From an uncultured Sutterella sp. (GTDB taxonomy: Bacteria; Pseudomonadota; Gammaproteobacteria; Burkholderiales; Burkholderiaceae_F): DNA of 64,000 nucleotides. Position 1 is the stretch's first letter. Every line of letters starts with the position of its first letter. The notes under the pieces were generated by a model, which was not told the origin of the DNA, made no database searches, and worked only from the letters and a program-made list of their open reading frames with translations. Where the stretch lies: the NCBI GenBank assembly GCA_900542195.1, contig UQNA01000001.1, forward strand, positions 49,640 to 113,639. The letters run 5' to 3'. Below, piece by piece: positions 3,179 through 61,298 of the stretch. A program made the position numbers and the translations under genes.

Positions 3179-3329
3179 GAGAGAACTTAACGGCAGACCA
3201 TAAGTTTTTTTAATAGTTATCGTTTAACTTGGTTTATTTTAGTCGCTTTCCTATCTGCCTCGTATCACAATGTCATCATGGATTCAACCTCAAAAATCCT
3301 CATCAAACATCAACCCAAAGGAAAAAATA

Positions 3330-4766
3330 ATGGCAACAAGAATCGAGCGAGATTGTCTCGGCGAAATGGAAATTCCTGACGATTTGTATTATGGCATTCA
3401 AACTACCCGTGTTATGGGAGTTTCTGGAGTCCTCGGAGAAAAAGTCATCAAATATCCATATCTTCACAGAGCTCTCACTCAAATGAAGAAAGCTGCTGCC
3501 TTAGCCAATGCAGAAATCGGGGCTCTCTCTCCAGAAATTGCTCAGGCTATTGCATGGGCCTGTGACCAAGTTCTCACGGGCAAGTATGACGATCAATTCC
3601 CCCTCGACATGTTCCAAGGCGGCGGCTATACCTGCGTCAACATGAACATTAACGAGGTCGTAGGAAATTTAGCAAATGAACACCTGACAGGTCATAAAGG
3701 CCAGGATAAAGTTCACCCAAATACTCATGTCAACATGGGTCAGTCAACAAACGATGTGGTCACCTCCGCCGAACATCTTTGTATTTATCCAGCTCTGGAT
3801 TTACTTGCTCCTGAACTCGACAAACTTGCTGACGCATTCCAGCGTAAAGCAGATGAATTTGCTGATGTCGTTAAAGTTGGAAGAACTTGTCTTCAAGACG
3901 CAGTTCCTCTTACTCTCGGCCAAGAATTTGGGGGCTATGCTGAATTCTGCAGACGACAAGCCGCCAATATCCGCGGTCTTAGAGATGAATGTTTTGAATT
4001 GATTGTTGGTGCTACTGCCGTAGGTACAGGGATGGGAGCAGCTCCGGGATATCAAGAAGCATTCTACAAACATCTTTCCGCACAGCTTGGCGAAAATGTC
4101 AGAAGTACAAAGAACCTCTTCGACGGAATGCAAAACGATGACTTCTGCGTGAAGGTCTCTGCTGCGGTTAAACAAGCGGCATGTGGTATTTCTAAAATTG
4201 CCAAAGACTTACGTATTATGAGCTCCGGTCCTCGTGCCGGCTTTGGCGAAATTACACTACCCTCCCTTTCTCCGGGTTCTTCTATTATGCCGGGCAAGAT
4301 CAATCCGATTCTTCCGGAACTGGTCTCTCAAGTTGCGCAGCAAACCTGCGGCAATGATGTAGTCATCAGCATGGCTTTTGAGCAGGGCGAATTAGAAATC
4401 AGCGTTTGGGCACCGACTCTTTACAAGAACTTATTCGAATCTTTCGACCTTCTAACTAAAGTCATTCCGCTGTTCATCGAAAAATGCATCAACGGTATTG
4501 AAGCAAATCGTGAACGCTGCAGTAAGGAAGCAAGAGAGACTATTGCTCTTTCTACCGTAGTCGCTGCAACTCTCGGCTATCCGGAGGGCGTTAAAGTTTC
4601 TCACTATGCTCAAGAGCACAACCTTGCCGTCGCAGACGCTGTGTTGGAAATGGGCATTATGACCAAAGAAGAAGCAGATCTGCTCTTGGATCCGGCACTC
4701 TTGGTAGACCCAGCCCGGATGTCTGAAGCCATCGCTAAGTGGAAGAAGCAAAAAGGAAAACTGTAA
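3330..4766 (+). CDS. aspA: Aspartate ammonia-lyase (fumarase/aspartase class II superfamily), paralog 1, intact
   Basis: Full-length similarity to E. coli AspA recalled from memory: [43 protein letters not shown], and the SS-loop signature [30 protein letters not shown]. An AAAGGA RBS precedes the ATG at 3330; the track ORF starts 60 nt earlier at a non-canonical position. Confidence 0.85.
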   Translation: [478 protein letters not shown]

Positions 4767-7805: not shown

Positions 7806-8828
7806 GTGGAAATGGGGGTAAGTAATAGCCCAATTAGGAGTGAACAAATGACTGTAGATTCGGGGCTGGATATTGGCTGTCTAAGAATATTTCTCGAGAC
7901 CGCAAAAGACTGCAACATGAGTCGAGCCGCACAGACGCTCGGTGTCTCTCAACCTGCGGTCTCTGCCTCTATCAAAAAAATTGAAACCATACTTGGTACC
8001 AGTGTTTTTGATAGGAATACCCGCCCTATTCAACTAACCACAGCGGGACGAATGCTGTGGAATCGAGGCTCATATCTTTTAGAACAATTTGATTGCCTCA
8101 CCCCATCCATTAAAAGCTCCCTTGTCTGCCATAAGGTTGATTTGAGAATGGGATGCTCAGACTGCATGAGCTTTGCCCTGAGCCCAAGTCTTATGAATGC
8201 TGCCTTAGAATTCACCAAGAATCTAAGCGTTAAAACCGGAAGCACCCCTACCATTTCACAGATGCTTTCCTGCAACCAGATTGATATTGCATTGGCCTCC
8301 GATTCAATGATTGGAGTAGAAAACGTTCAAGCTCTCCCTCTATTGACTGAAGAATTTCTCTTTGTAGTCCCTAAAGACATACTGGCGTGCCCAAGTCCTT
8401 GTTACAAAGAAATTTACGAAAAACTGTCACATCTTCCTTACCTGCGGTTTGGCAAAGAAACTTTCGATTTTGTTCAGTCCGAAAGAATTTATCGGGGACT
8501 TCATTTTAAAGATGTGCAGCGCATCGAAGTTGATACAAACAAAGCCATGATGTCCCTCATTTCCAACAGAAGAGGATGGTGCATTTTGCCGCCATTGAGT
8601 ATATGGATGGGAAAAGAATTTTCTAACAAAGTCAGCTTTTTTAAATTCAATGTAGAAGCCACCCGTCGTTACTTTGTTCTTTATCAGTCAAATGGGTATG
8701 CGTCAATCGCAGAAAGAATCAGAAAGGTATCCATAGAACTCTTTAAAAAAGAAATCTTCCCGCAAATTGCTAAAGAGTGGCCGGAATTGTTAAAGCACAT
8801 CCATCTTAACGATGATTGCGCCAGTTGA
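7806..8828 (+). CDS. LysR-family transcriptional regulator
   Basis: HTH LRIFLETAKDCNMSRAAQTLGVSQPAVSASIKKIE plus LysR effector domain. Confidence 0.85.
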   Translation: MEMGVSNSPIRSEQMTVDSGLDIGCLRIFLETAKDCNMSRAAQTLGVSQPAVSASIKKIETILGTSVFDRNTRPIQLTTAGRMLWNRGSYLLEQFDCLTPSIKSSLVCHKVDLRMGCSDCMSFALSPSLMNAALEFTKNLSVKTGSTPTISQMLSCNQIDIALASDSMIGVENVQALPLLTEEFLFVVPKDILACPSPCYKEIYEKLSHLPYLRFGKETFDFVQSERIYRGLHFKDVQRIEVDTNKAMMSLISNRRGWCILPPLSIWMGKEFSNKVSFFKFNVEATRRYFVLYQSNGYASIAERIRKVSIELFKKEIFPQIAKEWPELLKHIHLNDDCAS

Positions 8829-8853: not shown

Positions 8854-9818
8854 TCAATGAGACAGAAGATGGATAAACGATGATAGACCCGGAACAATTT
8901 TGTCCATCTTTGGCATGAGGTTATCCTGAATAGCCTTCTTTGCCGCTGCATGAACCACAGTTCTCATCCGATTGCTCGCCCCGCTCTTTCCTATAATCCA
9001 GGACTGCCTTCTCATCTGACGCCCAGGTATGGTGAAAAAGTCCACATCTTGAACGAAGTTACTGGAAGTCCATAAATTTGTGGGTGTAACAATAGACCAT
9101 CCATCAAGCTCCGCCACCAAACCCACTAAAAGATAACTTGTGGAGACAGCGGTCTGGACTTTTGCATGCATCCCGATTGAGCGGAGAATTCTGTCGACTT
9201 GAATTCTGTCGGAACTTTGTTTGTTGTATTCAATCAAAGGATGAGTAAGAGCAAACTGTTGGAACTCATTTAGCGTTGAAAATTTTCCTCTTCCTTTCTT
9301 TACGATGACTAAAAAGTCCTCTTCCAACAAATCCAGCCTCTCGAAACTATTGTTTTCGAAAAGTCCCTCAGGGGAAAGAAGGATATCGATTTTGTCTGCT
9401 TGAAGGGCTCTGCTCATTGGATAAGTTAAGCCGGACTGAACTTCCAGCTCATGAGTTTTACCTTTTAAATCGCTAATCAGCCATGGTCCGTAGGATCCGG
9501 CTGCAGATTCACTTAGGCCGAGGCGTAAAGAACTTAAGTTTTTGCCTTCATCTTGGATTTCATCGTACAAAGATTCCGAAAGCCGCATCAGCTCCTGGCC
9601 TTGAGAATAAAGGCGACGCCCTGGCGCGGTAAGAGTCATCGGACGAGAATCTCGTTCAAATAATTTAACTTTTAAATGTACTTCTTGGCTTTAATGCTCT
9701 GGCTGATAGCCGAAGGTGTCTGATTCAACCGATGGGCTGCTTCTTTCAAGTACCGAACTTCTGAAACTATTAAAAAGACTCTTAACAAATCAGTTTCAAT
9801 CCATTTTTTTTCAGTCAT
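8854..9818 (-). pseudogene. LysR-family regulator with a frameshift inside the HTH-coding region (pseudogene or sequencing error)
   Basis: My minus-strand translation from the ATG at 9818 gives MTEKKWIETDLLRVFLIVSEVRYLKEAAHRLNQTPSAISQSIKAKKYI*, hitting a stop at 9672-9674. The +2 frame then continues EVHLKVKLFERDSRPMTLTAPGRRLY into the 261-aa track ORF. A single-nucleotide deletion near 9680-9689 explains this. There is also an A8 tract at 9804-9811. Confidence 0.5.
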
Positions 9819-9956: not shown

Positions 9957-11396
9957 ATGACGAATTTCAGAACTGAAAGAGATTGCCTCGGTGAAATGCA
10001 GATCCCCGATAGCGACTACTACGGCATCCAGACGCACCGCATGGAAAAAGTTTCCGGCTGTGCAGGCCTCCCTGTCATTTTCTATCCCGACATGCATTAT
10101 GCGTTAGCTCAGATCAAGAAAGCTGCAGCCAAAGCAAACGGCCGTATTGGTGCAATGCCTCAAGAAGTTGCAGACGCAATCGCCCAGGCCTGTGACGAAG
10201 TTTTAACAGGAAAGTATAACGATCAATTCCCGCTTGATATGTGGCAAGGCGGCGGCTATACCTGCGTTAACATGAACGTTAATGAAGTTGTCGGCAACCG
10301 TGCAAACGAAATCCTTACAGGCGAAAAAGGCACATCCAAGGTTCACCCGAATACGCATGTGAACATGGGACAGTCCACAAATGACACCATTCCTTCTGCC
10401 ACACACCTTGGAATGATCGGCCGTGTAGACAAAATGATCTGCGAACTGAACAAGCTTGCAACATCCTTCAGAAACAAACAGGAAGAATTCAAAGATATCG
10501 TTAAAGTCGGCCGCACATGCTGGCAAGACGCGCTTCCTCTAACCCTCGGTCAAGAATTCGGCGGATTTGCATCCGTTACAGAACGCTTGGTTAGAAAACT
10601 CCAACATCTCCGTCCTGGTTGCTTCGAAATCGTTATGGGCGGAAGTGCTGTTGGGACAGGATTCAGCGCTGCACCAGGCTACAAAGAAGCTATCTATGAA
10701 GAGCTAACCAAACAATACGGTGAAAAAGTTTCTCCGATGGAAGATCTCTTCGACGGATTCCAAAATCCTGACTTTATTGTAGAAATGTCCGGTGCTGTCA
10801 AAGAAGTTGCCATGACCTTGTCTAAGATCTGCAAAGACTTACGTCTTATGAGCTCTGGGCCAAGATCCGGTTTCATGGAAATCCAACTACCGGCCCTTTC
10901 TCCTGGATCTTCCATTATGCCGGGTAAGATCAATCCGACAGTTCCGGAAATGGTTATTCAGATTTCTCACCAGGTTGTCGGCAATGATGTTGCTATAGCG
11001 ATGGCTTACGATGAAGGCGAACTTGACCTTAATGTTTGGGATGCGACATTCTACAAATGCTTATTCGAAAGCTTCCAATTAGTCAACTCTGAAATTGAAA
11101 TCTTGCGTGTTCATTGTGTAGACGGTATTAAAGCCAACGCTGCAAGATGCGCCCAAGAAGCTAACTCTTCTATCGCCCTATCAACCGTTGTTGCTACGGC
11201 TTTGGGCTATCCGATGGGCGTAAAAGTTGCTCACTATTGTGAAGCTAACAATAAGACAGTTAAGGAAGCCGTTATTGAAATGGGTCTGATGACTGAAGAA
11301 GAAGCGCAGAAGTTGGTTGATCCAATGCTGATGACAAATCCTCATGCAATGGCACCCGTCGTTGACGCCTTCAAGAAAGAAAAGCATGCTATTTAA
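9957..11396 (+). CDS. aspA: Aspartate ammonia-lyase, paralog 2, intact
   Basis: GGAGAA RBS; TNFRTERDCLGEMQIPD, QGGGYTCVNMN, HPNTHVNMGQSTND, GSSIMPGKINP all present. My by-eye estimate is about 65-70% identity to paralog 1. Confidence 0.85.
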   Translation: MTNFRTERDCLGEMQIPDSDYYGIQTHRMEKVSGCAGLPVIFYPDMHYALAQIKKAAAKANGRIGAMPQEVADAIAQACDEVLTGKYNDQFPLDMWQGGGYTCVNMNVNEVVGNRANEILTGEKGTSKVHPNTHVNMGQSTNDTIPSATHLGMIGRVDKMICELNKLATSFRNKQEEFKDIVKVGRTCWQDALPLTLGQEFGGFASVTERLVRKLQHLRPGCFEIVMGGSAVGTGFSAAPGYKEAIYEELTKQYGEKVSPMEDLFDGFQNPDFIVEMSGAVKEVAMTLSKICKDLRLMSSGPRSGFMEIQLPALSPGSSIMPGKINPTVPEMVIQISHQVVGNDVAIAMAYDEGELDLNVWDATFYKCLFESFQLVNSEIEILRVHCVDGIKANAARCAQEANSSIALSTVVATALGYPMGVKVAHYCEANNKTVKEAVIEMGLMTEEEAQKLVDPMLMTNPHAMAPVVDAFKKEKHAI

Positions 11397-11503: not shown

Positions 11504-12484
11504 TCACTCTGCAAATAAATACTCGCTTGAAATCCAAGGAATTATCGGACAAAGTTCGGCTTTAATCTTCTCTTGCATAAGATAGATAAGAAGGTTCTTC
11601 ACGGTCCCCAACAATTCTTTGTCAAAACTATTTCTAGAGACTAAAAAGACTTTCCTCCGTGATATCGGAGAGGGTGCTTTTACTATGGTTACCTCTTCCA
11701 AACCAACCAATGACGAAACAGCATAGGGCTGAACGAGTCCCCAACCCAAACCGGCCTTTACGAATTTCAAGATCATATTGGTATCCTCCACTTTATAGCG
11801 CGTGGAGAACCGAAGAGAGAGACGATCAAAAAACGTTGAGATTATTCTGTTGTTTGCAGTATTTTTCCCATACTGAACGAACGGGAGTTCCAGTTTGCTT
11901 AACACTTGCCAAGTTAGAGGAGAAGGAACTTCAAAGCCTCTAGGGAAAATAAGTACCCATGGCTCTTCAAATAAAAAATCCCAGGCAAGAGAATCGTCAG
12001 AAAGTACTGGAGAGGAAAGAACCCCGAGTTCTATCTCACGGTTAAGGAGGGCGAAGAAAAGACGATCCGAGGGACCGGTTTTGATTTCCAACTCATTGAT
12101 GTCCTGAGACAACCCCTTGGCCACATCCGCACCTATGAAAGAACCTACAGATTCCAACATTCCAAGTTTCAAAAAAGGTTTTGTCTGACCTTTGTTTTTT
12201 AGCTGATGTAAAAGGGCACCTAACTCTTGTGTACCTTTTTCTAAACCAGCAAGTAATAGCCTTCCTTCATGCGTCAGTCGTAACGGACGAGCGTCTCTTT
12301 CAAAAAGTCTGAAGCCCAGTTTCGTTTCAAAGCTTTTAATCGACTGAGAAATTGACGACTGAGAGACATGAAGACGCTGTGCAGTGGAAGAAAAAGAGTG
12401 AGAGCTTGCCGCTTCAAGAAAAATCGCAGCATTCCTTGTTAAAAGAGAATCCTCTAAGAGCGAATCGTTTTCCATAGCCATCAT
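11504..12484 (-). CDS. LysR-family transcriptional regulator, divergent from the ureohydrolase gene
   Basis: HTH AAIFLEAASSHSFSSTAQRLHVSQSSISQSIKSFE; LysR effector domain. Confidence 0.85.
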   Translation of the reverse strand: MMAMENDSLLEDSLLTRNAAIFLEAASSHSFSSTAQRLHVSQSSISQSIKSFETKLGFRLFERDARPLRLTHEGRLLLAGLEKGTQELGALLHQLKNKGQTKPFLKLGMLESVGSFIGADVAKGLSQDINELEIKTGPSDRLFFALLNREIELGVLSSPVLSDDSLAWDFLFEEPWVLIFPRGFEVPSPLTWQVLSKLELPFVQYGKNTANNRIISTFFDRLSLRFSTRYKVEDTNMILKFVKAGLGWGLVQPYAVSSLVGLEEVTIVKAPSPISRRKVFLVSRNSFDKELLGTVKNLLIYLMQEKIKAELCPIIPWISSEYLFAE

Positions 12485-12588: not shown

Positions 12589-13551
12589 ATGCCGAAAGTA
12601 ATTCACAATCTTCCTATTACTGGCATTGCCAGCTTTGCTAAATATCCCATCTGTACCGATCTTGACCAAATCGACGACGCCGACATGGTTGTCATGGGAA
12701 TTCCTTACGACATGGGTGCTCCTTACCTGAGCGGTGCTAAGTTCGGGCCAAGAAGAATCCGTGAAGTATCTTGTCATTACGGCCGTGGTCCCGCAGGTTT
12801 CTGGGATCCGGAAAGAATGGAGCAATATTTAGAAGCACCGGTCAAAGTAGTTGATGCCGGAGACGTTGATATGGATCCGATGGATTTCCACAAGAGCTTT
12901 GAAAACGTCACAGAAGCTGTCAGGAAGATCGTTTCTAAAGGTGCAATTCCTGTCATGATGGGCGGAGACCACTCTGTTACCATCCCTCAAGCCATGGCAA
13001 TGGACATGTACGATGACATTTGCATCGTGCAATTTGATGCGCACTTGGACTTCGGAAAAAGAACTTGGACGAACGGAAGTCCAATGAGAATGATTTCCGA
13101 GATGCCACATTTCACAAAGATGTGCCAAATCGGCATGAGAGGTCTAGGCAGCAATACCCGTGAAGACTTTCAAGCCGCTTATGCCTATGGTTCTGTTGTT
13201 ATTCCTTCTCGTAAAGCATTAGAACTCGGAGCACAGGAAGTCATCAAGATGATTCCGGAAGCCAAGAATTATTTTGTGACCATTGACATTGACGGATACG
13301 ACATGAGCACCGCCCCTGGTGTTGGCTCTCCTTCTCCAGGAGGCTTGAACTACAACTTTGTCACCGATGTTCTTGAAGGCATCGCCAAGAAAGGCAACGT
13401 TATCGGCTTTGACTTAGTTGAAGTTGCTCCTCAATATGATCCGACAGGCATCACTCCAAGACTGGGAGCTATGACCATGTTGGCTTTCATGGGCTTCATC
13501 ATGAAAGAAAGAGAAAAGAAAGGCTTACTGAAAAACAAAAAAGCTGAATAA
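12589..13551 (+). CDS. Arginase/agmatinase/formiminoglutamase-family ureohydrolase (binuclear Mn)
   Basis: All family motifs present: GGDHSVT, FDAHLDF, TIDIDGYD...SPSPGG. The substrate cannot be assigned from sequence. Confidence 0.8.
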   Translation: MPKVIHNLPITGIASFAKYPICTDLDQIDDADMVVMGIPYDMGAPYLSGAKFGPRRIREVSCHYGRGPAGFWDPERMEQYLEAPVKVVDAGDVDMDPMDFHKSFENVTEAVRKIVSKGAIPVMMGGDHSVTIPQAMAMDMYDDICIVQFDAHLDFGKRTWTNGSPMRMISEMPHFTKMCQIGMRGLGSNTREDFQAAYAYGSVVIPSRKALELGAQEVIKMIPEAKNYFVTIDIDGYDMSTAPGVGSPSPGGLNYNFVTDVLEGIAKKGNVIGFDLVEVAPQYDPTGITPRLGAMTMLAFMGFIMKEREKKGLLKNKKAE

Positions 13552-16237: not shown

Positions 16238-17047
16238 CTACTTGAAGGACTGTTTTAAGAACTCTGCTAGTCTGCCTCGGAAAGGTGAATTATTGTCTGA
16301 AAAAACTCCAAGGTAACTCTTTCCCAGGACGTCCCAAACTTCAGCTTGTTCAGGCAGCACTGCCGATAGCAGCGCCTGCTCCGTTTTTCTAACGAAGTCA
16401 TCTTTCTGAGGTTTAACAACCACTAACGGACATTGAATCGTTGGAAGTACTTCCATCGGCTCCAATGCGTCGGATTTAAGTAATTTAGAAATCACATCCC
16501 CAACAACGGGCCCGTACCTCTCTTTGAGCCAACCTTTTCTGGTCGCATAGATAGACTCAACAACCAACGCTTTCACTTCGCTTGGATGAGCGGCGGCAAA
16601 ACGAAGGGCGGCATCTGCGCCTACGCCTTGGCCCAGAACAGCCAAACGATTCATGCAGTATTTTTCTAGATTTCCCGGAACCTCATTTATGGCTTTCCAA
16701 GCAGTTTCCCCGTCTGTGGCAATACCGGCAAGAGTCGTTGAACCTTGACTATGGCCGATACCGCGATAATCAAAGAGACCTACGGCATATCCTTCCAATG
16801 CCAAATAAGCGACTTGCTGCAAGTTGTAGGACATGTTGAATTGCCCCGAATGGAAAAAGAGAACAAAACCTCTGCAAGACTGCCCTTTAGATAACCTTGG
16901 CTGGAGAACTTGATAGCAAACCGACTCTTTATCTGAAATGGATGCCTCACCATACTCAGCTGTTAAACCGTAATGCTGAGCGCTCCAATAAGGGAGCGAT
17001 GTTCCTCGGAAAAACATGCTCTCAGTCATATCAGATAAAAAACTCAT
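16238..17047 (-). CDS. Alpha/beta-hydrolase fold protein
   Basis: Nucleophile-elbow motif GIGHSQG; typical alpha/beta hydrolase length and pattern. Confidence 0.65.
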   Translation of the reverse strand: MSFLSDMTESMFFRGTSLPYWSAQHYGLTAEYGEASISDKESVCYQVLQPRLSKGQSCRGFVLFFHSGQFNMSYNLQQVAYLALEGYAVGLFDYRGIGHSQGSTTLAGIATDGETAWKAINEVPGNLEKYCMNRLAVLGQGVGADAALRFAAAHPSEVKALVVESIYATRKGWLKERYGPVVGDVISKLLKSDALEPMEVLPTIQCPLVVVKPQKDDFVRKTEQALLSAVLPEQAEVWDVLGKSYLGVFSDNNSPFRGRLAEFLKQSFK

Positions 17048-17320
17048 TCTCTTCTCCGATGAGGAAATTTTTGGGAAAGTCTTTTCAGTTTAATCTTTTG
17101 GCTTACAAATGTGCCTAAGGTATATCCATGACCTTTGGTTCTTTAACCGAGGTAGCAGCACTTCCTCGGCCTCTCAAAAATGAACTATATGTTTAGACTC
17201 TTTGTAGTCTGTTTTTATTATGAAGTATAGTTATAGTTAGTAGTCTTTTTAATTCTAAAAAGAAAACCTTTCGTACTTAAGTTTAAAGTTTAGAAAACAA
17301 ACTATCTTAGGTTCAACGTC

Positions 17321-18754
17321 ATGCGATTAGAGAAAGATTCTTTAGGAACGCTTGAGGTTCCTGACAACGCTTATTACGGCATTCAAACTGTCAGATGCGC
17401 AGCCAATCACAACGTCACCAATCACACTTTCTGCGAACTTCCACGAATCCAGAGAGCCCTTGCAGAGATAAAGAAAGCTTGTGCAATAACTAATCAACAA
17501 ATTGGTGCCTTAGAGAAAGCTAAGGCGGAAGTCATCGTTCAAGCTTGTGATGAAATTATTGCCGGTAAATTCCAAGATCAGTTTCCAATCAATGTTTGGC
17601 GCTCACACGGAACAGGGGCCAACATGAATGTCAATGAAATCATTGCTAATAGAGCCAATGAAATATTGACTGGCCACAAGGGCTATGAAGAAGTCCATCC
17701 CAACACTCATGTGAATATGTGTCAGTCCTCCAACGATGTCTATCCGACCGTACAGTCCATTGTTCTATACAGACAGATTGGCGAGGCCCTAGAATCCGTC
17801 CAGCTGTTGGAAGACGCGTTAGGTCACAAAGCTAAAGAATTCAAAAACATCGTAAGGCTCGGTCGGACCTGTTTACAAGATGCCGTACCCAATACTTTCG
17901 GTCAAGTTTTTGGCGGTTGGCAGCACATGATTCATCGCTTGAAGAACAGACTTGCTGACTATCGCGATGAGTACACGAGTGTAGTTTTAGGCGCAACAGT
18001 CCTCGGTACAGGAATGGGCCAAATGCCCGGCTATTCCGAACATATTATGGACAACCTCTCCCAGGTATTAGGTTGGAAAGTTCAGTGGCCTTCATGGGAC
18101 GAGGAAGTCATTCAGGACAGTGCGGCTTTTGACGGTATGCAAAACTGTGACCATTCACTTGTCCTCGCAGGTCTGTTGAAAGCTCTTTGCTGTGCGGCAG
18201 GAAGAATTTCTAAAGATCTCTGTATCCTTTCATCAGGTCCGAAACACGGTTTCGGAGAAATCAATCTTCCCCAAAAAGCAGACGAGGATTATTCCTCGGT
18301 GCCTCAGCTCATGTTCGAAATTATGCAGCAGTCCATTATTACCGATCAGGCTGCTACTTTAACAGTCAATGAAAATGACAGTGATGAAGCCATCACAGAC
18401 AGTCCAAGCTTCATGGGTCTAATGGAAACATTGGACAACATTACGGAGGGCTTCAAAATCTTCGCAGAAGATTGTATTTCCGGCATCACAGTAAATGAAG
18501 AAAAAGTAAATACGAATGCAGAAATGTCAACATCTTTGGCCACGATGGTCAGCGCATTGTTCGGATATCAGGTCGGTACCAGAATTGCTCATCGTGCTTG
18601 GAATGAAGGCATCTCTTGTCGAGAGGCTGCTTTGGAAGAAAATCTTCTGACTCAAGAGCAAGCAAACGATCTATTCGATATTCAAAAACTGACCGACAGA
18701 GAGGCGTTAGTACAGATGTTTGCCAAATACGGCCCCTTGAGAAACATTAAGTAA
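17321..18754 (+). CDS. Fumarase/aspartase-superfamily paralog 3: full length but with a degenerate catalytic SS-loop
   Basis: Retains region 1 (GTGANMNVNE) and region 2 (HPNTHVNMCQSSND). Where the GSSxMPxKxN signature should be, it reads INLPQKADEDYSSVPQLMFEIMQ, so the catalytic Lys and Asn are absent. Confidence 0.8.
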   Translation: MRLEKDSLGTLEVPDNAYYGIQTVRCAANHNVTNHTFCELPRIQRALAEIKKACAITNQQIGALEKAKAEVIVQACDEIIAGKFQDQFPINVWRSHGTGANMNVNEIIANRANEILTGHKGYEEVHPNTHVNMCQSSNDVYPTVQSIVLYRQIGEALESVQLLEDALGHKAKEFKNIVRLGRTCLQDAVPNTFGQVFGGWQHMIHRLKNRLADYRDEYTSVVLGATVLGTGMGQMPGYSEHIMDNLSQVLGWKVQWPSWDEEVIQDSAAFDGMQNCDHSLVLAGLLKALCCAAGRISKDLCILSSGPKHGFGEINLPQKADEDYSSVPQLMFEIMQQSIITDQAATLTVNENDSDEAITDSPSFMGLMETLDNITEGFKIFAEDCISGITVNEEKVNTNAEMSTSLATMVSALFGYQVGTRIAHRAWNEGISCREAALEENLLTQEQANDLFDIQKLTDREALVQMFAKYGPLRNIK

Positions 18755-18767
18755 GTTGAGGCACAAA

Positions 18768-19841
18768 ATGAAAAACCTTACCAGCTCAATTACATGGTCC
18801 GCTTACCCTGAATATCCTCGTGCCATACTCTCCATCCTTCAGGTAATTGGAACCGCAAAATCCAAAATCGGACTCGTTTCTGAAGACACCTCTCGAGCAA
18901 TTGAAGAAGCTATTCAAGAGGTTATGCAGAATTCATTTGATTGGAAGATCTTAGGAGTTTCTGATCTTTCTTTGACAAAGAAAATCCTTGAAGACGTCAT
19001 ATCCAAAATTCCGGAAAATTTACAGCATGAGGCCAGAGAGGCCTTAACTGCGGGATATTCTCCCTATGCGCTTTTCTTAACTGCCAAAGAGTATGTCATT
19101 CTTCGAGAACTTCGGCTTTTGCTTGACTCAACAACCAATCTAAAAAAGACGCTTTTACAAAAAGCCGAAGTCTTTTCCGGAGAATGCACATGTGCCAGAG
19201 ACCACTTGAGGGATGCAGATGAAATTAATTTCTCCAGCGTATTCGAGGTATTCGAGCAAGGTATTTCCGAACAAGCCGAACTTATTGGCTGCTCACTTAG
19301 CCGCTGGAATATTAATTATTTAACCTCTTACAGACCTGGTTTAGAGGAGGCTCCGACAAACATATCGGGATTCCAACCGGCTCTGGGACAAGAACTGGAA
19401 AAACAGTTTGATCTTAAATTAGACAATCTGCCGGGACACTTAGATTTCTTGAACTTTGGAGTAAAACTGCTTAACTCGCACGCTCTGCTGCAAGGCCTCT
19501 CCACGCAGGTTTGGAGAATTGCAAACGACCTCAGAATTCGAGCTTCCGGTCCTAGAGGCGGCTTGAGTGAAATAACACTTCCGGCAGTTGCCCCCGGTTC
19601 TTCCATCATGCCGGGAAAGCTGAATCCGGTTATTGCAGAAATGATTTACGGAACATGTGATCAAGTGGATGCAGATCACGCCGGCATCAGCATGTCTCTC
19701 AAATCAGGATGGCTAGAGACAGCTTCTACCTCCTCTCTCTCTCTAAAAGCTTACCTTCAAAGCGTTGAACTATTAAGGCGTTCCATTGACTGCTTTACCA
19801 ACCTATGCATTAGCAGCGTGGAAATTAACAAAAAGGCTTAG
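18768..19841 (+). CDS. Fumarase/aspartase-superfamily paralog 4: diverged and C-terminally truncated, retains the SS-loop signature but lacks the region 1 and region 2 motifs
   Basis: ASGPRGGLSEITLPAVAPGSSIMPGKLNPVIAE is present, but there is no VNMN or QSxND motif. GAGG RBS; the ATG lies 13 nt after the paralog-3 stop (the track uses a TTG at 18756). The protein ends about 35 aa after the SS loop. Confidence 0.7.
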   Translation: MKNLTSSITWSAYPEYPRAILSILQVIGTAKSKIGLVSEDTSRAIEEAIQEVMQNSFDWKILGVSDLSLTKKILEDVISKIPENLQHEAREALTAGYSPYALFLTAKEYVILRELRLLLDSTTNLKKTLLQKAEVFSGECTCARDHLRDADEINFSSVFEVFEQGISEQAELIGCSLSRWNINYLTSYRPGLEEAPTNISGFQPALGQELEKQFDLKLDNLPGHLDFLNFGVKLLNSHALLQGLSTQVWRIANDLRIRASGPRGGLSEITLPAVAPGSSIMPGKLNPVIAEMIYGTCDQVDADHAGISMSLKSGWLETASTSSLSLKAYLQSVELLRRSIDCFTNLCISSVEINKKA

Positions 19842-19856
19842 TTTTCAGAGGTCACA

Positions 19857-20807
19857 ATGAGTATCAGTGGTTCTTATATCAAAGGCGTTCTTCTTGTTCT
19901 GCTAAGTGCGCTTTGTTTCAGCATCAGCGGAACTCTACAAGCTCTTGCCCCGGAGGGGTCAAATCCATTCATCATCACGGAGATGAGAATGATCATCGGA
20001 TCCCTATTCCTTTATTTCTGGTGCCGAGCTTTTAAAAAGCTTCCCCATAGCTACAAAGACCTGCCTTGGAAATCACTTTTTATCTGTGCCATTTTCCTTC
20101 TGATAGGTCAGCTTTGCTTCTTCACGGGAATGGCGAATATCGGCGTAGCTGCCGGTGTTGTGATCTCTATTGGTTCTGCTCCGATCTTTGCTGCCATTAT
20201 TTCCCGAATTTTTTTCAAGATCTCTCCACCCAAGGCTTGGTATGCGGCCACCTTTTTAGCCATAGCGGGAGTCGCGCTAATCAATGGGGGCGACCTAAAT
20301 CAGTCCAGACTATTCTTTATCCTGATACTCCTCACCGACGGCTTGACGTACGCTGCCTACATCAATTTCAGCTCAAAACTCGGAGATAAGCTTGATAGCG
20401 ATGCTGCAGTTATGCTGATTCTTGCGATTATTGCTCTAGTGCTTTCTCCAGTCCTCTTTATATTCCCTGTTTCTTGGACCTATTCCTCTTTAAACGGAAT
20501 ATTCGTTTGTCTCGGCCTCGGTATATTTACGGGAGGAATGGCATTTGCATTCTTAACCTCAGGGGCAAGACTTGTAAGTCCTGCCGTCGCATCTACTCTT
20601 TGTCTTGCCGAGCCCCTCGGAGCAGTCTGCTGGGGCATCTTTCTTCTTAAGGAAGACACTTCCTTCACCACCTTGCTTGGAATTGCCTCTGTCCTTTTGT
20701 CTATCATTGTTCTGGTATTTTTTGCCAAAGAGCCGAAGAAACCTTCTAATCCGAAGGCTCAAGAAATCTCACAAATGCAGAGCTCTTCAACAATTCCCGA
20801 TGTCTAG
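19857..20807 (+). CDS. EamA/DMT-family transporter
   Basis: 10-TM profile with two EamA-like repeats; lies 16 nt downstream of paralog 4, so probably in the same operon. Confidence 0.7.
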   Translation: MSISGSYIKGVLLVLLSALCFSISGTLQALAPEGSNPFIITEMRMIIGSLFLYFWCRAFKKLPHSYKDLPWKSLFICAIFLLIGQLCFFTGMANIGVAAGVVISIGSAPIFAAIISRIFFKISPPKAWYAATFLAIAGVALINGGDLNQSRLFFILILLTDGLTYAAYINFSSKLGDKLDSDAAVMLILAIIALVLSPVLFIFPVSWTYSSLNGIFVCLGLGIFTGGMAFAFLTSGARLVSPAVASTLCLAEPLGAVCWGIFLLKEDTSFTTLLGIASVLLSIIVLVFFAKEPKKPSNPKAQEISQMQSSSTIPDV

Positions 20808-20848
20808 TACACTAGTTTCTCATTGGAAGAAATGGGGAGCAGATTTTC

Positions 20849-21823
20849 ATGAAGCTACAAGAAACCGGAGCCTTGAAGCCGAGCTGGCGTGCTTTTCTTC
20901 TTCTTTGTGAGGCACAAAGTTTCTCCAATGTAGCCAAGACTGTGGGTATTTCACAATCCGCCCTATCCAAAACGATTAAAGGTATTGAATCAGAACTTGG
21001 CTTTCCTTTATTTGACAGAACTAAACGTCCGATTGTTCCTACACCAGAAGCTCTACTTCTGAGAGAAGAATTATTAGTAATGTCTGCAGCAATCGATGAA
21101 AAAATTAAGAAACTGCGGCTTCAGAAAGATCTGCGTCCTACATTGCGTTTTGGCTGTGTTGACAGTGTATGCCGCTTCATCGTCCCTGCTCTTATTAATC
21201 ATTTTGGAGACAGTCTTTCTAAGTTTTCACAGATCACCGCAAATTCAGGAATTCTTATCAAGAAGCTCCTATCAAACGAGCTTGATGTAATTTTGGTCAG
21301 CGGTTCCTTTGATGAAATAAGCGGGCTCTACCGCAGAAAGATCTTCACGGAACCTTCCTTAATTGTCCTTCCTCCGAAATTTGAAGCAATTAAAAAACAA
21401 TGGAGTTGGCAAGATCTTCAGAAGCTAGAGCTACCTCTTCTTTCTTCATCAGAGTCGAGTGAGGCAAAAAGACTGAATGAGAGGTTCTTAAGCAGTTCCA
21501 GGCTCCATTTTTTTTCTCCCTATCAAATTGATTCTGATGAAATAATGATTTCATTGATTGAATCAGGAATAGGTTGGGCGATAACGCGCCCTTCAACACT
21601 CTTGGCTTCGCGAAAGGACAAACTTAGCGTGTCTTTAGTTCCGCTTCCTAAAGGAAATTTTGACCGGCACCTTTATTTGATGAGTAAAGAGAACTTTTTT
21701 ATCCCAGAAGTTAATACCATTGAGTCGGTATGCAAATCGGTTCTTCAATCTGAAATCAAACCGCTTTTAAAAGAACTTCTTAAATATACAGAACTCTTTC
21801 AACTCGCTAAACAAATTAAGTAG
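20849..21823 (+). CDS. LysR-family transcriptional regulator
   Basis: HTH FLLLCEAQSFSNVAKTVGISQSALSKTIKGIESELGFPLFDR; LysR effector domain. Confidence 0.8.
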   Translation: MKLQETGALKPSWRAFLLLCEAQSFSNVAKTVGISQSALSKTIKGIESELGFPLFDRTKRPIVPTPEALLLREELLVMSAAIDEKIKKLRLQKDLRPTLRFGCVDSVCRFIVPALINHFGDSLSKFSQITANSGILIKKLLSNELDVILVSGSFDEISGLYRRKIFTEPSLIVLPPKFEAIKKQWSWQDLQKLELPLLSSSESSEAKRLNERFLSSSRLHFFSPYQIDSDEIMISLIESGIGWAITRPSTLLASRKDKLSVSLVPLPKGNFDRHLYLMSKENFFIPEVNTIESVCKSVLQSEIKPLLKELLKYTELFQLAKQIK

Positions 21824-22114
21824 AACTTAATTAAAAAAGAAACCTCTCTTCACTTTCTTGGCCGCTCGTATCCCCGCTTTTAGAGTGGTGTTATTCCATT
21901 GAAGAGCGCATCATCTGCCCGTTGCTCTAACCATAAATCAAATTTATAGGCACGATGTAATTTGGATTATTAGAAGTGCAAACGGACAGAGGTTCTCAGA
22001 AAATGGATATGAACCAAATATTTAAGGTCTTGAGAATATTTGGGCACCATCTTTCTAAAACAACTATCAATCCAAGGAGGAAGAAGGTCTCAGGACTCTG
22101 TACCTTCTGCTTTT

Positions 22115-23434
22115 ATGATTACTCTTATTGAACTACTTATCGTCTTCGGAGCCATTTTCATGGGCGTCCGTCACGGGAGCTTAGCTCTAGGTTTTTGGGG
22201 CGGTTTGGGCTTAGTTGTATTGGGCGTATGCTTCGGTGTATTTCCTACTGCCCCTCCGATCGACGTTATGCTCATCATTTTGGCTGTCTGCATGTGCGCA
22301 GCCTGTATGGAAGCTGTCGGCGGCTTAGACATTCTTGTTAGAATTGCCGCCCGCATCATTCGTGCAAAACCAAAAATGGTCGGAGTTATCGCTCCGGTTG
22401 TCAGCTTCTTCCTAACATTCTTTGCTGGTACAGGAAACGCTGTCTACGCTATTCTGCCAGTGGTTTATGAAGTGTCTTACAACGCAGGTGTACGTCCTGA
22501 AAAGGCTATGGCCGGAACTGCGGTTGCAGGTCAGGTAGGCATTACTGCCAGCCCGATTGCCGCTGCTATGGCTGCTATGATTGGTTTGTTTGCTCAAAAC
22601 AATCACGGAGATATTGGCTTAGGCTCAATCTTGATGATTACCTTCCCAGCCTGCTTAATCGGCGTTGTTCTCGGCTCTGCAATCTGCCTTCTGTTTGGTA
22701 AGGGTTTAGATGACGATCCAGAATATCAAGCACGTTTGAAAGCCGGTCTTGTTCTTCCTCCTCAACCAATCTCAAATCACAAGCTTCCTCCGCAAGCTTT
22801 ATGGTCTGTTCTTATCTTCTTGGGCGCCATCGTTGTCATCGTTGCAGCCGGCTTCTTCCCTGAACTAAGAGTACTTCCGGGTCAAACCAAGGGCGTTGGA
22901 ATGGCACTTGTAATCGAAGCGGTCATGCTCGCAGCCGGTGCTCTCATGATGCTCTTCTGCAAACCTGATGTTAAAAAAGTTGTTAAGAGCCCCGTCATGG
23001 AAGCTGCCGTTGTTTCTCTCGGATGCGTATTTGGTGTTGCTTGGATGGCTGACTCCTTCATTGCTGCTAATAAGGAAATCTTCCTTCAGGTTGCTGGGCA
23101 ATTAGCGCAAACCGCTCCCTGGCTGTTCTCATTCATTCTTGCCGGTATGTCTGCCTTGTTGGCAAGTCAAGGTGCTACTACTCGTGCCATCATGCCTCTG
23201 GGATTTGTTCTTGGCATTAACCCCTGGTACTTGATTGCAATGTTCCCAGCTGTTAACTGCTTGTTCATTCTCCCGACTTCCGGCCCAGCATTGGCTGCAG
23301 TTGGTATGGACCGTTCCGGTACTACTTATATTGGCAAATACGTCCTTAATCACTCCTTCCAGTTACCCGGCATTTTGATGGTAGCCATTGCAGTGTTGTC
23401 TGCCTTTGCAATCGTCCAATTGTTCGTAATTTAA
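22115..23434 (+). CDS. dcuA: Anaerobic C4-dicarboxylate transporter (DcuA/DcuB family)
   Basis: MITLIELLIVFGAIFMGVRHGSLALGF...FFLTFFAGTGNAVYAILPVVYEV matches the Dcu-family N-terminus and core. The track ORF begins 75 nt upstream at an unlikely start. Confidence 0.85.
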   Translation: MITLIELLIVFGAIFMGVRHGSLALGFWGGLGLVVLGVCFGVFPTAPPIDVMLIILAVCMCAACMEAVGGLDILVRIAARIIRAKPKMVGVIAPVVSFFLTFFAGTGNAVYAILPVVYEVSYNAGVRPEKAMAGTAVAGQVGITASPIAAAMAAMIGLFAQNNHGDIGLGSILMITFPACLIGVVLGSAICLLFGKGLDDDPEYQARLKAGLVLPPQPISNHKLPPQALWSVLIFLGAIVVIVAAGFFPELRVLPGQTKGVGMALVIEAVMLAAGALMMLFCKPDVKKVVKSPVMEAAVVSLGCVFGVAWMADSFIAANKEIFLQVAGQLAQTAPWLFSFILAGMSALLASQGATTRAIMPLGFVLGINPWYLIAMFPAVNCLFILPTSGPALAAVGMDRSGTTYIGKYVLNHSFQLPGILMVAIAVLSAFAIVQLFVI

Positions 23435-23454
23435 TAAAACCTTTACGAGCTAGC

Positions 23455-23488
23455 TAAAAGAAACCCGGCCGCAGCCGGGTTTCTTATG
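23455..23488. terminator. Bidirectional terminator (perfect 9-bp stem aaacccggc / gccgggttt)
   Basis: Hairpin followed by TCTTTT on the minus-strand transcript; sits between the convergent dcu gene and the minus-strand operon. Confidence 0.6.
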
Positions 23489-23537
23489 GTCAGAAGATCG
23501 GAAGTCTGAATGATTTCTCTAGGGATTCATCTTCAAA

Positions 23538-23744
23538 TTAATCAACTAAATGAATCTCTCCCCCGTCTTCTACTAACCGATAATCGTATTTTTTCTTGCC
23601 GTTAATTTCTTCAAGCCATGCGGCACGAGGTTCCTCAATATCCAAATTGGCATTGATAAATCTTTCAGCCTCAAGTTTGGTCGCGAAATTTTCACATCCG
23701 TCCGAATACTCTACGATTACCTGCGTTACTACGTCTCTTCTCAT
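23538..23744 (-). CDS. Small hypothetical protein (68 aa), translationally coupled to the M20 peptidase gene
   Basis: ATGA overlap with the upstream gene's stop; followed by the terminator. No recognisable motif. Confidence 0.35.
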   Translation of the reverse strand: MRRDVVTQVIVEYSDGCENFATKLEAERFINANLDIEEPRAAWLEEINGKKKYDYRLVEDGGEIHLVD

Positions 23745-32135: not shown

Positions 32136-32423
32136 ATGTCCTTGACTTTAAGCGATGTCCGCAGAATCGCTGATCTGGCTCGTATCGACCTCTCCGATGA
32201 AAAAGCCCCGGAGTTGATGAGCCAGCTAAATGACATTCTTGGAATGGTTGAACAAATTCAATCTATTAATACCGAAGGGATTGAGCCTATGCCTCACCCG
32301 TTCGGCGGAGCTCAGCGCCTTCGTCCGGATGACGTAACCGAACATAATCGCCGGGAAGAGAATATGAAGAATGCCCCCGATGAAATGGACGGTCTTTTCC
32401 TAGTACCTAAAGTAATTGAGTAA
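32136..32423 (+). CDS. gatC: Asp-tRNA(Asn)/Glu-tRNA(Gln) amidotransferase subunit C
   Basis: 95 aa; typical GatC sequence ([34 protein letters not shown]). Confidence 0.85.
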
Positions 32424-33891
32424 AGGAATAGTAATGACGGATTTAACACAAGCGACGGTTGCAGAACTCAGTTCTCTGTTATCTGCTAAAAAAGTGTCTT
32501 CAGAAGAAGTCACCAAAGCATACCTTCAAAAAATCGAAGATACAAAAGAACTTAATGCTTACCTTGACGTTCGCCCTGAAGTCAGCCTCGCCCAAGCTAA
32601 AGAAGCTGATAAGAAAATCGCCGCCGGCGAAGCCGGTCCTTTAGCCGGCGTTCCTATCGCCCACAAAGATATTTTCGTAACAAAAGAATGGGCAAGCACA
32701 GCTGCCAGCAAGATGCTTGAAGGATACATGAGCCCGTTCGACGCTACGGTGGTTGAAAAACTTAAAGAAATCAACATGGTTTGCTTAGGCAAGACCAACT
32801 GCGATGAATTTGCCATGGGTTCTACCACAGCAAACAGCGCTTACGGCAAAACCTACAATCCTTGGGACAAAAATGCAGTCCCCGGCGGTTCCTCCGGCGG
32901 AGCTTCCTCCTGCGTGGCAGCTCGCATTGCACCGGTTGCTACAGGTACTGATACCGGAGGTTCCATCCGCCAGCCGTCTGCTTTCTGCGGCGTAACCGGC
33001 ATCAAGCCGACTTACGGCCGTCCAAGCCGCTGGGGCATGATTGCATTTGCCTCCAGTCTTGATACGGCAGGCATCATTGCTCAAACCGCCGAAGACTGCG
33101 CTCTGGTTTTGTCACACATCATCGGGTTTGATAAACGCGATTCCACCAGCATTGAACTTCCTCCGGAAGATTTGACGGTTTCTTTAAACGACGGCGTCAA
33201 AGGATTAAGAATCGGCGTACCTAGAAAGTGGCTGGACAAAGTGGCTCCGGGCCTTAAGGCAGCTCTTAACGATGCCTTGCGTCAATATCAAGAACTCGGT
33301 GCAGTGCTTGTAGACATTGATTTACCGACCGCCGACTTAGGCGTTCCCGTCTACTACATCATCGCTCCTGCCGAAGCCAGTTCCAACCTCAGCCGTTTTG
33401 ACGGCGTTCGCTACGGCCACCGAGCTCAGAAGTACGATGATCTTCTCGACATGATCAAACGCAGCCGTGACGAAGGATTCGGGCCGGAACCTAAGCGCCG
33501 TATTCTTATCGGAACATACGTTCTTTCCCACGGCTATTACGATGCTTACTACATCAAAGCTCAACAGGTACGCCGCTTGATTGCTCAAGAATTCGACAAC
33601 ACCTTCAAAAACAGCTGCGATGTCATCTTCTGTCCGGTTTCTACCGATGCCGCGTTCAGTTTCGATGATAAGAGTGATCCGCTTTCTCTGTACTTGAGCG
33701 ACCTCTTTACAGTCCCGGGATCTCTTGCCGGTCTGCCGTCCATGAGCGTTCCCTGCGGAATCAGCTCCAATAACCGTCCATACGGTTTCCAATTAATCGG
33801 TGCAAAATGCCGCGAAGCTCAGCTGCTTGGTGTTGCTCACGCATACCAGCAAGTTACTGACTGGCACAAGAAAGTTCCCGCAGGATACTAA
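32416..33891 (+). CDS. gatA: Amidotransferase subunit A (amidase signature family)
   Basis: Amidase signature GGSSGGS...[12 protein letters not shown]; 8-nt overlap with gatC. Confidence 0.9.
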
Positions 33892-33905
33892 GAAAGGAAA
33901 AAGAC

Positions 33906-60800: not shown

Positions 60801-61298
60801 AACCGGATTACCGGAGAAGATCCAGAGCTCAAATTCCGCTCTCACGGATTCACTTTCTCCGTCGAAACAGGTTATAGCTTCAAACTTGCTAAGACAGGCA
60901 CTGAGAAAGAAACCGACTTCATTATTCAACCGCAAGCTCAGCTCATCGTCACAGATTTAAAGAACAACTCTGTCAGCGATACGCACGGATAGAAATTTAA
61001 ACAGCTTGGTAAGAATAATGCCACGGTGCGTCTTGGGGCCCGATTCATGGTTAAGCAGGACACAAAGCTAACGGCTTTTGTCGAAGGCAATTGGCTGCAT
61101 AACACGAAGAAGGCCGGTGTACAGATGGGAACCGAAGGTGTTTACATGAGCGGAGGCAAAAACACCGGGGAAATCAGAGTCGGTGCGGAAGGCACCCTCA
61201 GTCGCAACCTGAAAGGCTGGGTCAGCGGATCATTCCGAGCCGGGCAGTCCGGATATCACACCGAATCTGCACAGGTTGGCCTGAAGCTTCTCTTCTAA
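51861..61298 (+). pseudogene. Giant autotransporter adhesin gene (about 9.4 kb, about 3100 aa if intact) split into four ORF fragments. It is either phase-OFF or a decaying pseudogene.
   Basis: Fragments:
- signal peptide ORF, 51861-52067 (frame 0)
- 52126-56853 (frame +1)
- 56850-60992 (frame 0)
- 61026-61298 (in frame with the preceding fragment, after an amber codon)
The last fragment is the beta-barrel C-terminus ...SAQVGLKLLF. The passenger is Gly/Thr/Ser/Asn-rich with beta-helix-like repeats throughout. Confidence 0.7.
52038..52044 (+). repeat. Poly-G tract (G7) at the junction between signal peptide and passenger of the giant autotransporter
   Basis: Seen directly: aaataaaGGGGGGGagtacg. 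In the current frame it reads K-G-G-E...VNS*. Confidence 0.85.

Follow-up and report, generated by a model that had tools for sequence, protein, structure and literature searches.

Two adjacent genes, here called A and B, were studied in a 64,000-nucleotide (nt) stretch of DNA from an uncultured Sutterella sp. (contig UQNA01000001.1); this whole stretch is referred to as the window. Open reading frames (ORFs) matching the Pfam family Lyase_1 (PF00206) occur four times in its first 20 kb, at 3270-4766, 9957-11396, 17321-18754 and 18768-19841, and no further lyase gene was found in the window. A candidate second lyase pair at 32416-35354 was rejected, its ORFs being GatA and GatB. The first two of the four, both on the forward strand, encode canonical aspartases of 498 and 479 amino acids (aa), respectively, with all motifs intact and scores above the cut-off of the NCBIfam profile NF008909 (529 and 533 versus 510); they serve here as comparators outside the pair. 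The last two are A (17321-18754) and B (18768-19841), and these two genes and all of their features described below are on the forward strand. We propose herein that A and B probably encode the two subunits of one heterotetrameric enzyme, the active site of which would be completed only when both are present.

Members of the aspartase/fumarase superfamily are textbook homotetramers with active sites built from three subunits, and the superfamily is a classic system of intragenic complementation, as in deficiencies of argininosuccinate lyase (ASL) and fumarase. In AspB, the aspartase of Bacillus sp. YM55-1, the site is composed of three clusters, one subunit supplying each: Thr101, Ser140, Thr141 and Asn142 (cluster 1), Thr187 and residue 188 (cluster 2), and a mobile SS loop (cluster 3) that carries the catalytic Ser318 and the carboxylate-binding residues Met321, Lys324 and Asn326. 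The contribution of the three active-site regions of AspB by different subunits, with the C-terminal domain of one chain lining the active site, has been described (PMC11744663, and its Fig. 3 legend). In FumC, residues 96, 98 and 139-141 (Thr96, Ser98 and Ser139-Asn141) come from one protomer, Thr187' and His188' from a second, and Lys324 with its loop from a third (PMC3169413).

Gene A (477 aa) encodes a full-length, three-domain, aspartase-like protein, which scored 196.8 bits against Lyase_1 (cut-off, 27) and also matched FumaraseC_C. It aligns end to end with AspB residues 5-455, and its best sequence match is 1j3u (E 6e-79). The substrate-binding clusters are kept. Region 1, HGTGANMNVNE (17606-17638), contains Thr98, the counterpart of AspB Thr101; region 2, MCQSSND (17717-17737), contains Ser136, Ser137 and Asn138, which correspond to Ser140, Thr141 and Asn142; and GRTCLQDA (17861-17884) contains Thr183, corresponding to Thr187, next to Cys184 at the His188 position, where both canonical aspartases of the window also have a Cys. 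The catalytic SS loop is absent: the Lyase_1 match ends at profile position 284 of 312, the GSSxMPxKxN signature is missing, and the segment aligned to the AspB loop, LPQKADEDYSSVPQLMFE (18266-18319), has no equivalents of the Ser-Ser, Met, Lys or Asn and is 7 residues short of the canonical loop. This region varies in both length and sequence among A orthologues and holds no conserved Ser-Ser, Lys or Asn, which rules out a functional Lys or Asn in a shifted position. From the residue set of a single-chain aspartase, A has Thr101, Ser140, a Ser at position 141, Asn142 and Thr187, and none of Ser318, Lys324 and Asn326. Positions 101, 104, 105 and 108 (AspB numbering) are 100% conserved across 14 A sequences of the window's type (type ii, defined below). 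The T. muris orthologue of A is named "lyase family protein" by NCBI, and the A orthologues encountered bear that name or "lyase".

Gene B (357 aa) encodes domains 1 and 2 only, with the SS loop kept. It scored 84.2 bits against Lyase_1, its alignment covers AspB residues 53-395, and it ends near AspB residue 397, lacking the N-terminal hairpin (the first ~28 residues), region 1, region 2, Thr187 and the entire domain 3. Residue-by-residue alignment to AspB gave nothing recognizable as an equivalent of region 1, a degenerate region 2 (AGYSPYA instead of MSQSTND; 19050-19070), and a degenerate Thr-His region (ARDHLRDA instead of GRTHLQDA; 19194-19217) in which Thr187 is replaced by Asp. The SS loop, LPAVAPGSSIMPGKLNPV (19578-19631; residues 271-288 of 357), provides Ser278, Ser279, Met281, Lys284 and Asn286, equivalent to AspB Ser318, Ser319, Met321, Lys324 and Asn326. 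These five positions are 100% conserved across 14 type-ii B sequences, and the motif APGSSIMPGK-NP is invariant in 24 B-family sequences that share only ~30% overall identity. B hence holds Ser318, Lys324 and Asn326 of the single-chain aspartase set, and none of Thr101, Ser140, Thr141, Asn142 and Thr187. Both proteins score below the curated cut-offs of NF008909 (A, 392; B, 139; cut-off, 510), TIGR00839 (344 and 106; 681) and the fumarase profile TIGR00979 (331 and 120; 664.75). An AlphaFold2 model of B (pLDDT 87.3, pTM 0.87) shows the long helices of domain 2, with a low-confidence SS loop at residues 276-285. Its best fold match in the PDB is 3r6y, a chymotrypsin-treated AspB (TMq 0.85) with listed chains of 383-391 residues versus ~460 in intact AspB, and its matches to AspB and FumC (TMq 0.80-0.89) extend over domains 1-2 only. 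As modelled, B is a folded two-domain aspartase-like scaffold.

Gene A ends with TAA at 18752-18754. A 13-nt spacer (18755-18767) separates it from B and contains GAGG (18758-18761), placed six nt ahead of B's ATG; gene callers use this ATG (18768), and the TTG at 18756 taken by the ORF finder is an unlikely start. An earlier reading of the window, hereafter the original prediction, had placed four genes of the aspartase/fumarase fold in the first 20 kb, with the first two intact, the third retaining regions 1 and 2 and missing the loop Lys and Asn, and the fourth retaining the SS loop and missing regions 1 and 2, its start lying 13 nt after the stop of the third behind GAGG. The Lyase_1 matches, the profile scores, the alignments to AspB and the start at 18768 bear out these points. 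Its description of the fourth protein as truncated soon after the loop holds in part: domain 3 is absent, but B extends 70 residues beyond its loop motif, and the loss of domain 3 is confined to the Turicimonas/Parasutterella muris sub-lineage, more distant B orthologues having 420-466 aa.

The pair recurs in other genomes. An 11.6-kb region around it is 94% identical in DNA sequence to Turicimonas muris YL45, a member of the mouse-gut Sutterellaceae and of the OMM12 consortium; no functional data on T. muris were found in its literature, the organism having shown no growth in the study cited. In metagenome contigs with B homologues, the gene order was A, B, EamA (transporter) and LysR (regulator) every time, with genes for a Dcu-type transporter, an alpha/beta hydrolase and an arginase-family protein nearby, and this order held at a B identity of 69% (locus L004) as well as 34-35% (L005 and L006 of Candidatus Aphodousia; L007 and L008). 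When one genome of each species was scanned, tandem Lyase_1 pairs turned up in Turicimonas (two loci), Parasutterella excrementihominis, P. muris, Sutterella metagenome-assembled genomes (MAGs), Duodenibacillus, Bilophila wadsworthia and an uncultured Burkholderiaceae. A type-ii A gene lies directly 5' of every type-ii B gene examined (the window, L004, L005, L007, L009, L010, L012, L013, L018-L023, L025, L089, L091, L093 and L094). The two genes were adjacent and on the same strand at every locus examined, and in 23 pairs the nearest plausible gene-2 start lay 2-41 nt past gene 1.

The same association was seen from the side of the proteins. Two A proteins without the SS loop were picked from a database list, and in both cases the next gene downstream was of the B type; one of these two proteins is present in 250 index blocks of the assembly collection, and a protein identical to the window's A is present in 51 index blocks from metagenome assemblies. 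The 119 closest A-family clusters comprise 47 that are intact and 72 that have no loop motif; 68 of the latter retain all three other motifs by regular-expression matching, and the remaining four include truncated sequences. In the B family, the loop is the only motif kept in 33 of the 35 best clusters, and this loop-only type makes up ~30 of the best 45 representatives at 50% identity. Across genera, A orthologues are 67-73% identical to the window's A, whereas the matching B orthologues are only 31-36% identical to its B; both the pair and its spacing, whose conservation in relatives the original prediction had offered as a check, are kept down to this level.

Three records among these deserve separate mention. 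L011 (titled Parabacteroides distasonis) and L025 (Bacteroidaceae bacterium) carry Sutterellaceae-type pairs with Dcu, EamA and LysR neighbours, and are probably contigs mis-binned into Bacteroidales MAGs. The protein P0011 (403 aa; ENA contig of 2134 nt) resembles an intact Bilophila-type gene-1 (alpha) protein over its N-terminal three quarters, and from LPAVAPGSS on matches the window's B exactly; as the junction falls on conserved loop-coding DNA, this protein is probably a chimera of metagenome assembly.

Sutterellaceae, Bilophila and gut metagenomes provided 29 tandem lyase pairs, which fell into three states when their motifs were scored in AspB numbering. Both genes are intact (type i) in 7 pairs (L011, L014-L017, L024 and L026), which come from Bilophila, Sutterella MAGs, P. 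excrementihominis and the contig binned as Parabacteroides. Gene 1 lacks the loop and gene 2 lacks regions 1 and 2 and Thr187 (type ii) in 19, including the window. The reverse (type iii) is seen in L005, L018 and L094, where the loop APGSTIMPGKINPS is retained in gene 1, whose binding motifs are decaying, and gene 2 is loop-less with its binding motifs retained. No discordant pair, with a single degenerate partner or with the same region lost in both, was present among the 29. Complementarity was scored at the 94 positions showing conservation in 17 or all 18 of the intact enzymes, with losses counted in 14 type-ii A and 14 type-ii B sequences. Type-ii A has lost 8 of these positions, all of them in the SS loop (318-324 and 326) and none elsewhere. 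Type-ii B has lost 40 (6-29, 66, 84, 90, 101-117, 123-146, 187, 190, 196, 210, 230, 240, 241, 272, 410, 418 and 425), which fall in the N-terminal hairpin (6-29), region 1 (101-117), region 2 (within 123-146) and domain 3 (410, 418 and 425), among other places. None of the 94 was lost in both. The chance of zero overlap is ~0.009 when positions are taken as independent, a rough figure, as the lost positions are clustered.

Compared with T. muris YL45, the ratio of nonsynonymous to synonymous substitution rates (dN/dS) is 0.058 for A and 0.164 for B (dS, 0.17 and 0.24); purifying selection therefore acts on both genes, though less strictly on B, which evolves about three times faster than A. 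In neighbour-joining trees, the only kind built (a distance script with bootstrap), all gene-1 proteins form an alpha clade (72.5% bootstrap) and all gene-2 proteins a beta clade (84.5%). The two are sister clades set apart from the canonical aspartases (97.5%), and the alpha and beta distance matrices correlate with each other (Mantel r 0.42, p 0.0004). On the alpha side, the loop-less clade of the window is sister to the intact L011 (79.5-100% support), and a second loop-less clade branches elsewhere, with 74% at the separating node. Because the two branch apart, one of them next to an intact protein, the trees argue for at least two independent losses of the loop within Sutterellaceae. Further degenerate pairs are the Bilophila-like L089 and the very divergent L091. 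The second loop-less alpha clade comprises L018 (4430-5884), L020 (4464-5918), L021-L023, L025 and L093 (4001-5455).

Adjacency, complementarity, the reciprocal split, purifying selection and the correlated trees, all read from sequence, together favour the heterotetramer with fewer composite sites that the original prediction had put forward. We consider it likely that A and B assemble obligately into an A2B2 lyase of the aspartase/fumarase superfamily, in which two composite sites would be complete and two dead, and whose substrate would be aspartate or a related C4-dicarboxylate. A would donate clusters 1 and 2, and B would donate cluster 3, the SS loop, alone. In a D2 model, let subunit g supply cluster 3 of site g, with clusters 1 and 2 of that site coming from g·p and g·q, respectively. 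Complete sites would then form only if the two B subunits were related by the third axis, r, which connects the loop donor with the subunit that takes no part in the site. Exactly two complete sites would result, each with a B loop, A and A', and the other two would gather all of the defects (A loop, B and B'), so that all three of their clusters would be dead. Any other arrangement, and A or B alone, would provide no complete site. Such a geometry would therefore predict that one subunit loses cluster 3 only, and that the other loses clusters 1 and 2 together, which is the partition seen in A and B. Domain 3 of B may be dispensable, because it would line dead sites only. The same logic underlies the sequestration of variants into some of the sites, which experiments on ASL and human fumarase have demonstrated (PMC12818424). 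As to its origin, the pair may descend from an ancestral tandem alpha/beta duplication in which one of the two classes of site was later lost; Bilophila, Sutterella and Parasutterella still have versions in which neither gene has degenerated.

The same losses could be read differently if A and B were a non-catalytic pseudo-enzyme pair with a ligand-binding, regulatory or scaffolding role, such as that of a sensor for aspartate or fumarate or a modulator of the canonical aspartases or of Dcu, in which case association of the two would be optional. Each protein does lack essential catalytic residues, B has evolved some threefold faster than A, the window already encodes two canonical aspartases, and AspA of Escherichia coli is known to associate with DcuA. 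However, a pair of this kind would predict neither the invariant SS loop in B and the invariant binding clusters in A, nor the absence of doubly lost positions (0/94) and the reciprocal split in a sister pair, whereas the complementary pattern of losses is what selection on one complete composite site would give. We therefore regard a pseudo-enzyme pair as unlikely. Two independent homotetramers with new chemistries, that is, neofunctionalized paralogs that are merely co-transcribed, seem quite improbable as well. Tandem pairs with both genes intact exist and could represent two separate enzymes, and the gene neighbourhoods vary between clades of pairs. Yet a B4 tetramer would place an invariant catalytic loop over a pocket devoid of Thr101, Ser140-Asn142 and Thr187, an A4 tetramer would have a pocket without base, Lys or Asn, and independent neofunctionalization predicts neither strict complementarity nor 0/29 discordant pairs. 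Finally, recent decay of duplicated aspartase genes, or a single gene split by a frameshift or an assembly error, is hardly credible and was rejected: B is truncated at both ends with many conserved residues gone, and gene-rich paralog families often carry pseudogenes, but A and B are near full-length homologues rather than halves of one gene (each ORF independently aligns over most of AspB), the pair is conserved across genera at the identities given above, dN/dS is far below 1 with no in-frame stops, and an identical A protein and the synteny recur in many independent assemblies.

The pair is followed on the forward strand by three genes related to transport and regulation. An EamA/DMT transporter gene (19857-20807; Pfam EamA, 109 bits) starts 15 nt downstream of B, and not 16 nt as originally given. 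It is the conserved third gene of the cluster, found 3' of the pair in the window, L004, L005, L007, L009-L016 and L019. A LysR-family regulator gene (20849-21823; Pfam) is the conserved fourth. Next is a gene for a DcuA/DcuB-type anaerobic C4-dicarboxylate transporter (22040-23434; Pfam DcuA_DcuB, 395 bits), whose longest ORF starts from the TTG at 22040, the gene caller's start being 22160; its protein scored 460 bits against NF006927 (cut-off, 369). A Dcu gene adjoins most pairs, and lies directly upstream of the intact L011, L014, L015 and L017 and of the degenerate L089, where the order is Dcu, A, B and asparaginase. In E. coli, aspA adjoins dcuA, much as the window's pair adjoins its Dcu gene. 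Other neighbours of some pairs are a homologue of mandelate racemase and muconate lactonizing enzyme (MR_MLE), a beta-eliminating lyase, a near-agmatinase (arginase-family) gene and ASL-like genes. Promoter and terminator consensus scans of 16900-23700 found 8 and 7 sites, compared with 9.3 and 6.8 in shuffled sequence, and were uninformative on operon structure.

Several side observations concern the lyases and their surroundings. Both canonical aspartases of the window have a Cys at AspB His188 (GRTCLQD and GRTCWQD). Their region 1, GGGYTCVNMN, is unusual too, having an additional Tyr and a Cys in place of Ser102; a Cys at position 188 also occurs in most alpha and beta proteins of Sutterellaceae and Bilophila. 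Six LysR-type genes are interspersed among the four lyase genes in 24 kb (1155-2087, 2201-3178 on the reverse strand, 7806-8828, 8854-9639 and 11504-12484, both on the reverse strand, and 20849-21823), which suggests that each lyase locus has its own inducer; the ORF at 8854-9639 matches the substrate-binding domain only. ASL-like paralogs with a CSSIMPQKKNPW loop (Cys for Gly before the Ser-Ser) and intact TARSRND and GYTHLQP motifs lie near many pairs (L007, 117-1631 and 2839-4344; L010, 9015-10571; L012, 10404-11924; L019, L021, L023 and L093). The arginase-family (near-agmatinase) gene is also found in L007, L010, L012 and L019; the window has such a gene (12589-13551) and no ASL-like gene. 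In L094, a Beta_elim_lyase gene (threonine-aldolase-like, PF01212; 6908-7948) lies directly 3' of the second-type degenerate pair, and its position suggests a substrate unlike that of the window's pair; ORFs of matching size and position are present at 7337-8406 in L018 and L020 (P. excrementihominis and T. muris). Elsewhere in the window, two very large ORFs, of 1575 aa (52126-56853) and 1380 aa (56850-60992), have 4 nt in common. The first has no Pfam match; at the end of the second are autochaperone, pertactin and autotransporter beta domains. The two may represent a single giant autotransporter in two parts, or a passenger with its translocator. The reverse strand carries two further autotransporter genes (35409-38105 and 39238-41925).

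With regard to the substrate, we loosely favour an aspartase-like reaction, because of the Dcu/asparaginase context, the asparagine-aspartate-fumarate route of Sutterella and the residues of the composite site. The composite site of A and B would have the same residues as the canonical aspartases of this organism, including the Cys at the His188 position. In Sutterella colonizing chicks, proteins of the route from asparagine through aspartate and fumarate to malate and succinate are among the most abundant (PMC11204068). The enzyme may thus convert L-aspartate or a close C4-dicarboxylic analogue to fumarate for fumarate respiration, with the Dcu and EamA proteins encoded next to it as carriers and the LysR protein as its regulator.

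Several points weigh against the heterotetramer and its proposed substrate. The putative A2B2 geometry is deduced by analogy with the published architecture of homotetramers. Even alpha and beta relatives with all motifs in place miss the curated cut-offs for aspartase (scoring 454-495) and fumarase, so that the substrate may not be aspartate, and some pairs have MR_MLE, beta-eliminating lyase, arginase-family or ASL-like neighbours. The second loop-less alpha clade, whose members carry NEGQLDH, has a loop of canonical length with a conserved G-x-x-G-Y...[TN]-x-Y; L093 even keeps the Gly-Ser-Ser, and Lys324, Asn326 and Met321 are always missing in this clade. The loop there may have been remodelled for a new role rather than merely lost. 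Moreover, the deep nodes of the trees are weakly supported (20-50%), which makes the number of independent losses uncertain, and the grouping of all motif-less beta proteins in a single clade may be a long-branch artefact.

The closest known enzymes are the aspartases AspB of Bacillus sp. YM55-1 and E. coli AspA, which share the fold of A and B and match them best in both sequence and structure. Taken together, A and B cover Thr101, Ser140, Thr/Ser141, Asn142, Thr187, Ser318, Ser319, Met321, Lys324 and Asn326. However, the known aspartases are homotetramers with four identical sites made from one polypeptide, whereas in A and B these residues are split over two; in addition, A and B fall below the curated hidden Markov model cut-offs, and B lacks the N-terminal hairpin and domain 3. 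FumC has in common with the pair the superfamily, the three-subunit composite site and the SS loop, and region 2 of A is a fumarase-like SSND. In contrast to the homotetrameric FumC, the pair appears heteromeric, both proteins score below the TIGR00979 cut-off, and A has a Cys at His188. Two-subunit class I fumarases and tartrate dehydratase (alpha/beta) are also heteromeric, fumarate-forming hydro-lyases with adjacent genes, but they are Fe-S enzymes of an unrelated fold, and their genes encode halves of one architecture rather than full-length paralogs.

Searches of the full-text literature found no description of a heteromeric or pseudo-enzyme bacterial member of the aspartase/fumarase superfamily, and a 2026 review of fumarase evolution makes no mention of heteromers. 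The original prediction was aware of no described heteromeric member, but such members are not entirely unknown in the superfamily at large: in hybrid tetramers of ASL and human fumarase, the defects of two polypeptides are sequestered in some sites while others are complete (PMC12818424). Those hybrids differ from A and B in being formed by alleles of one gene, mixed at random in heterozygotes or in the laboratory, whereas A and B are separate, presumably co-transcribed paralogs, fixed in the genome, with wholesale loss of clusters and domains. A second exception is found in the delta1- and delta2-crystallins of the duck, which belong to the ASL branch; these two paralogs, of which one has no enzyme activity, naturally form mixed tetramers. 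There, however, the delta2 homotetramer is itself active and delta1 serves as a structural protein of the lens; the losses are non-complementary, and the heteromer is not needed for catalysis. By analogy, the closest functional counterpart of the A/B pair is the pseudo-enzyme heteromer of trypanosomatid deoxyhypusine synthase. In this enzyme, as in AdoMetDC/prozyme, paralogs that lack parts of an inter-subunit site are active only as a heteromer with fewer sites; the folds and chemistry are unrelated, the hosts are eukaryotic parasites, and we know of no reciprocal versions. As in a paralog heteromer, A and B each miss catalytic residues that the other keeps (8 versus 40 of 94, none shared), and they co-occur side by side at every locus examined, a layout from which co-expression would be expected.

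On balance, we lean towards the broader view that the alpha/beta lyases of gut Sutterellaceae and Desulfovibrionaceae constitute an undescribed, obligately heterotetrameric branch of the superfamily. Its subunits would have become mutually dependent after a tandem duplication, and one class of composite sites would have been inactivated repeatedly, in one lineage in the reciprocal sense, giving half-site enzymes in which intragenic complementation is fixed by constructive neutral evolution. The dead sites may have become regulatory, and the substrates may extend beyond L-aspartate.

If this is true, A and B would represent a natural enzyme in which intragenic complementation has been fixed into two genes, and the intact, forward-split and reverse-split pairs would form an evolutionary series for the origin of obligate paralog heteromers and pseudo-enzyme subunits. 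It also bears on annotation, where motif-based checks would call each gene on its own dead or, wrongly, an aspartase. The route from asparagine and aspartate through fumarate to succinate is central in Sutterella (PMC11204068), and may be so in further common gut members of the family, such as Turicimonas and Parasutterella.

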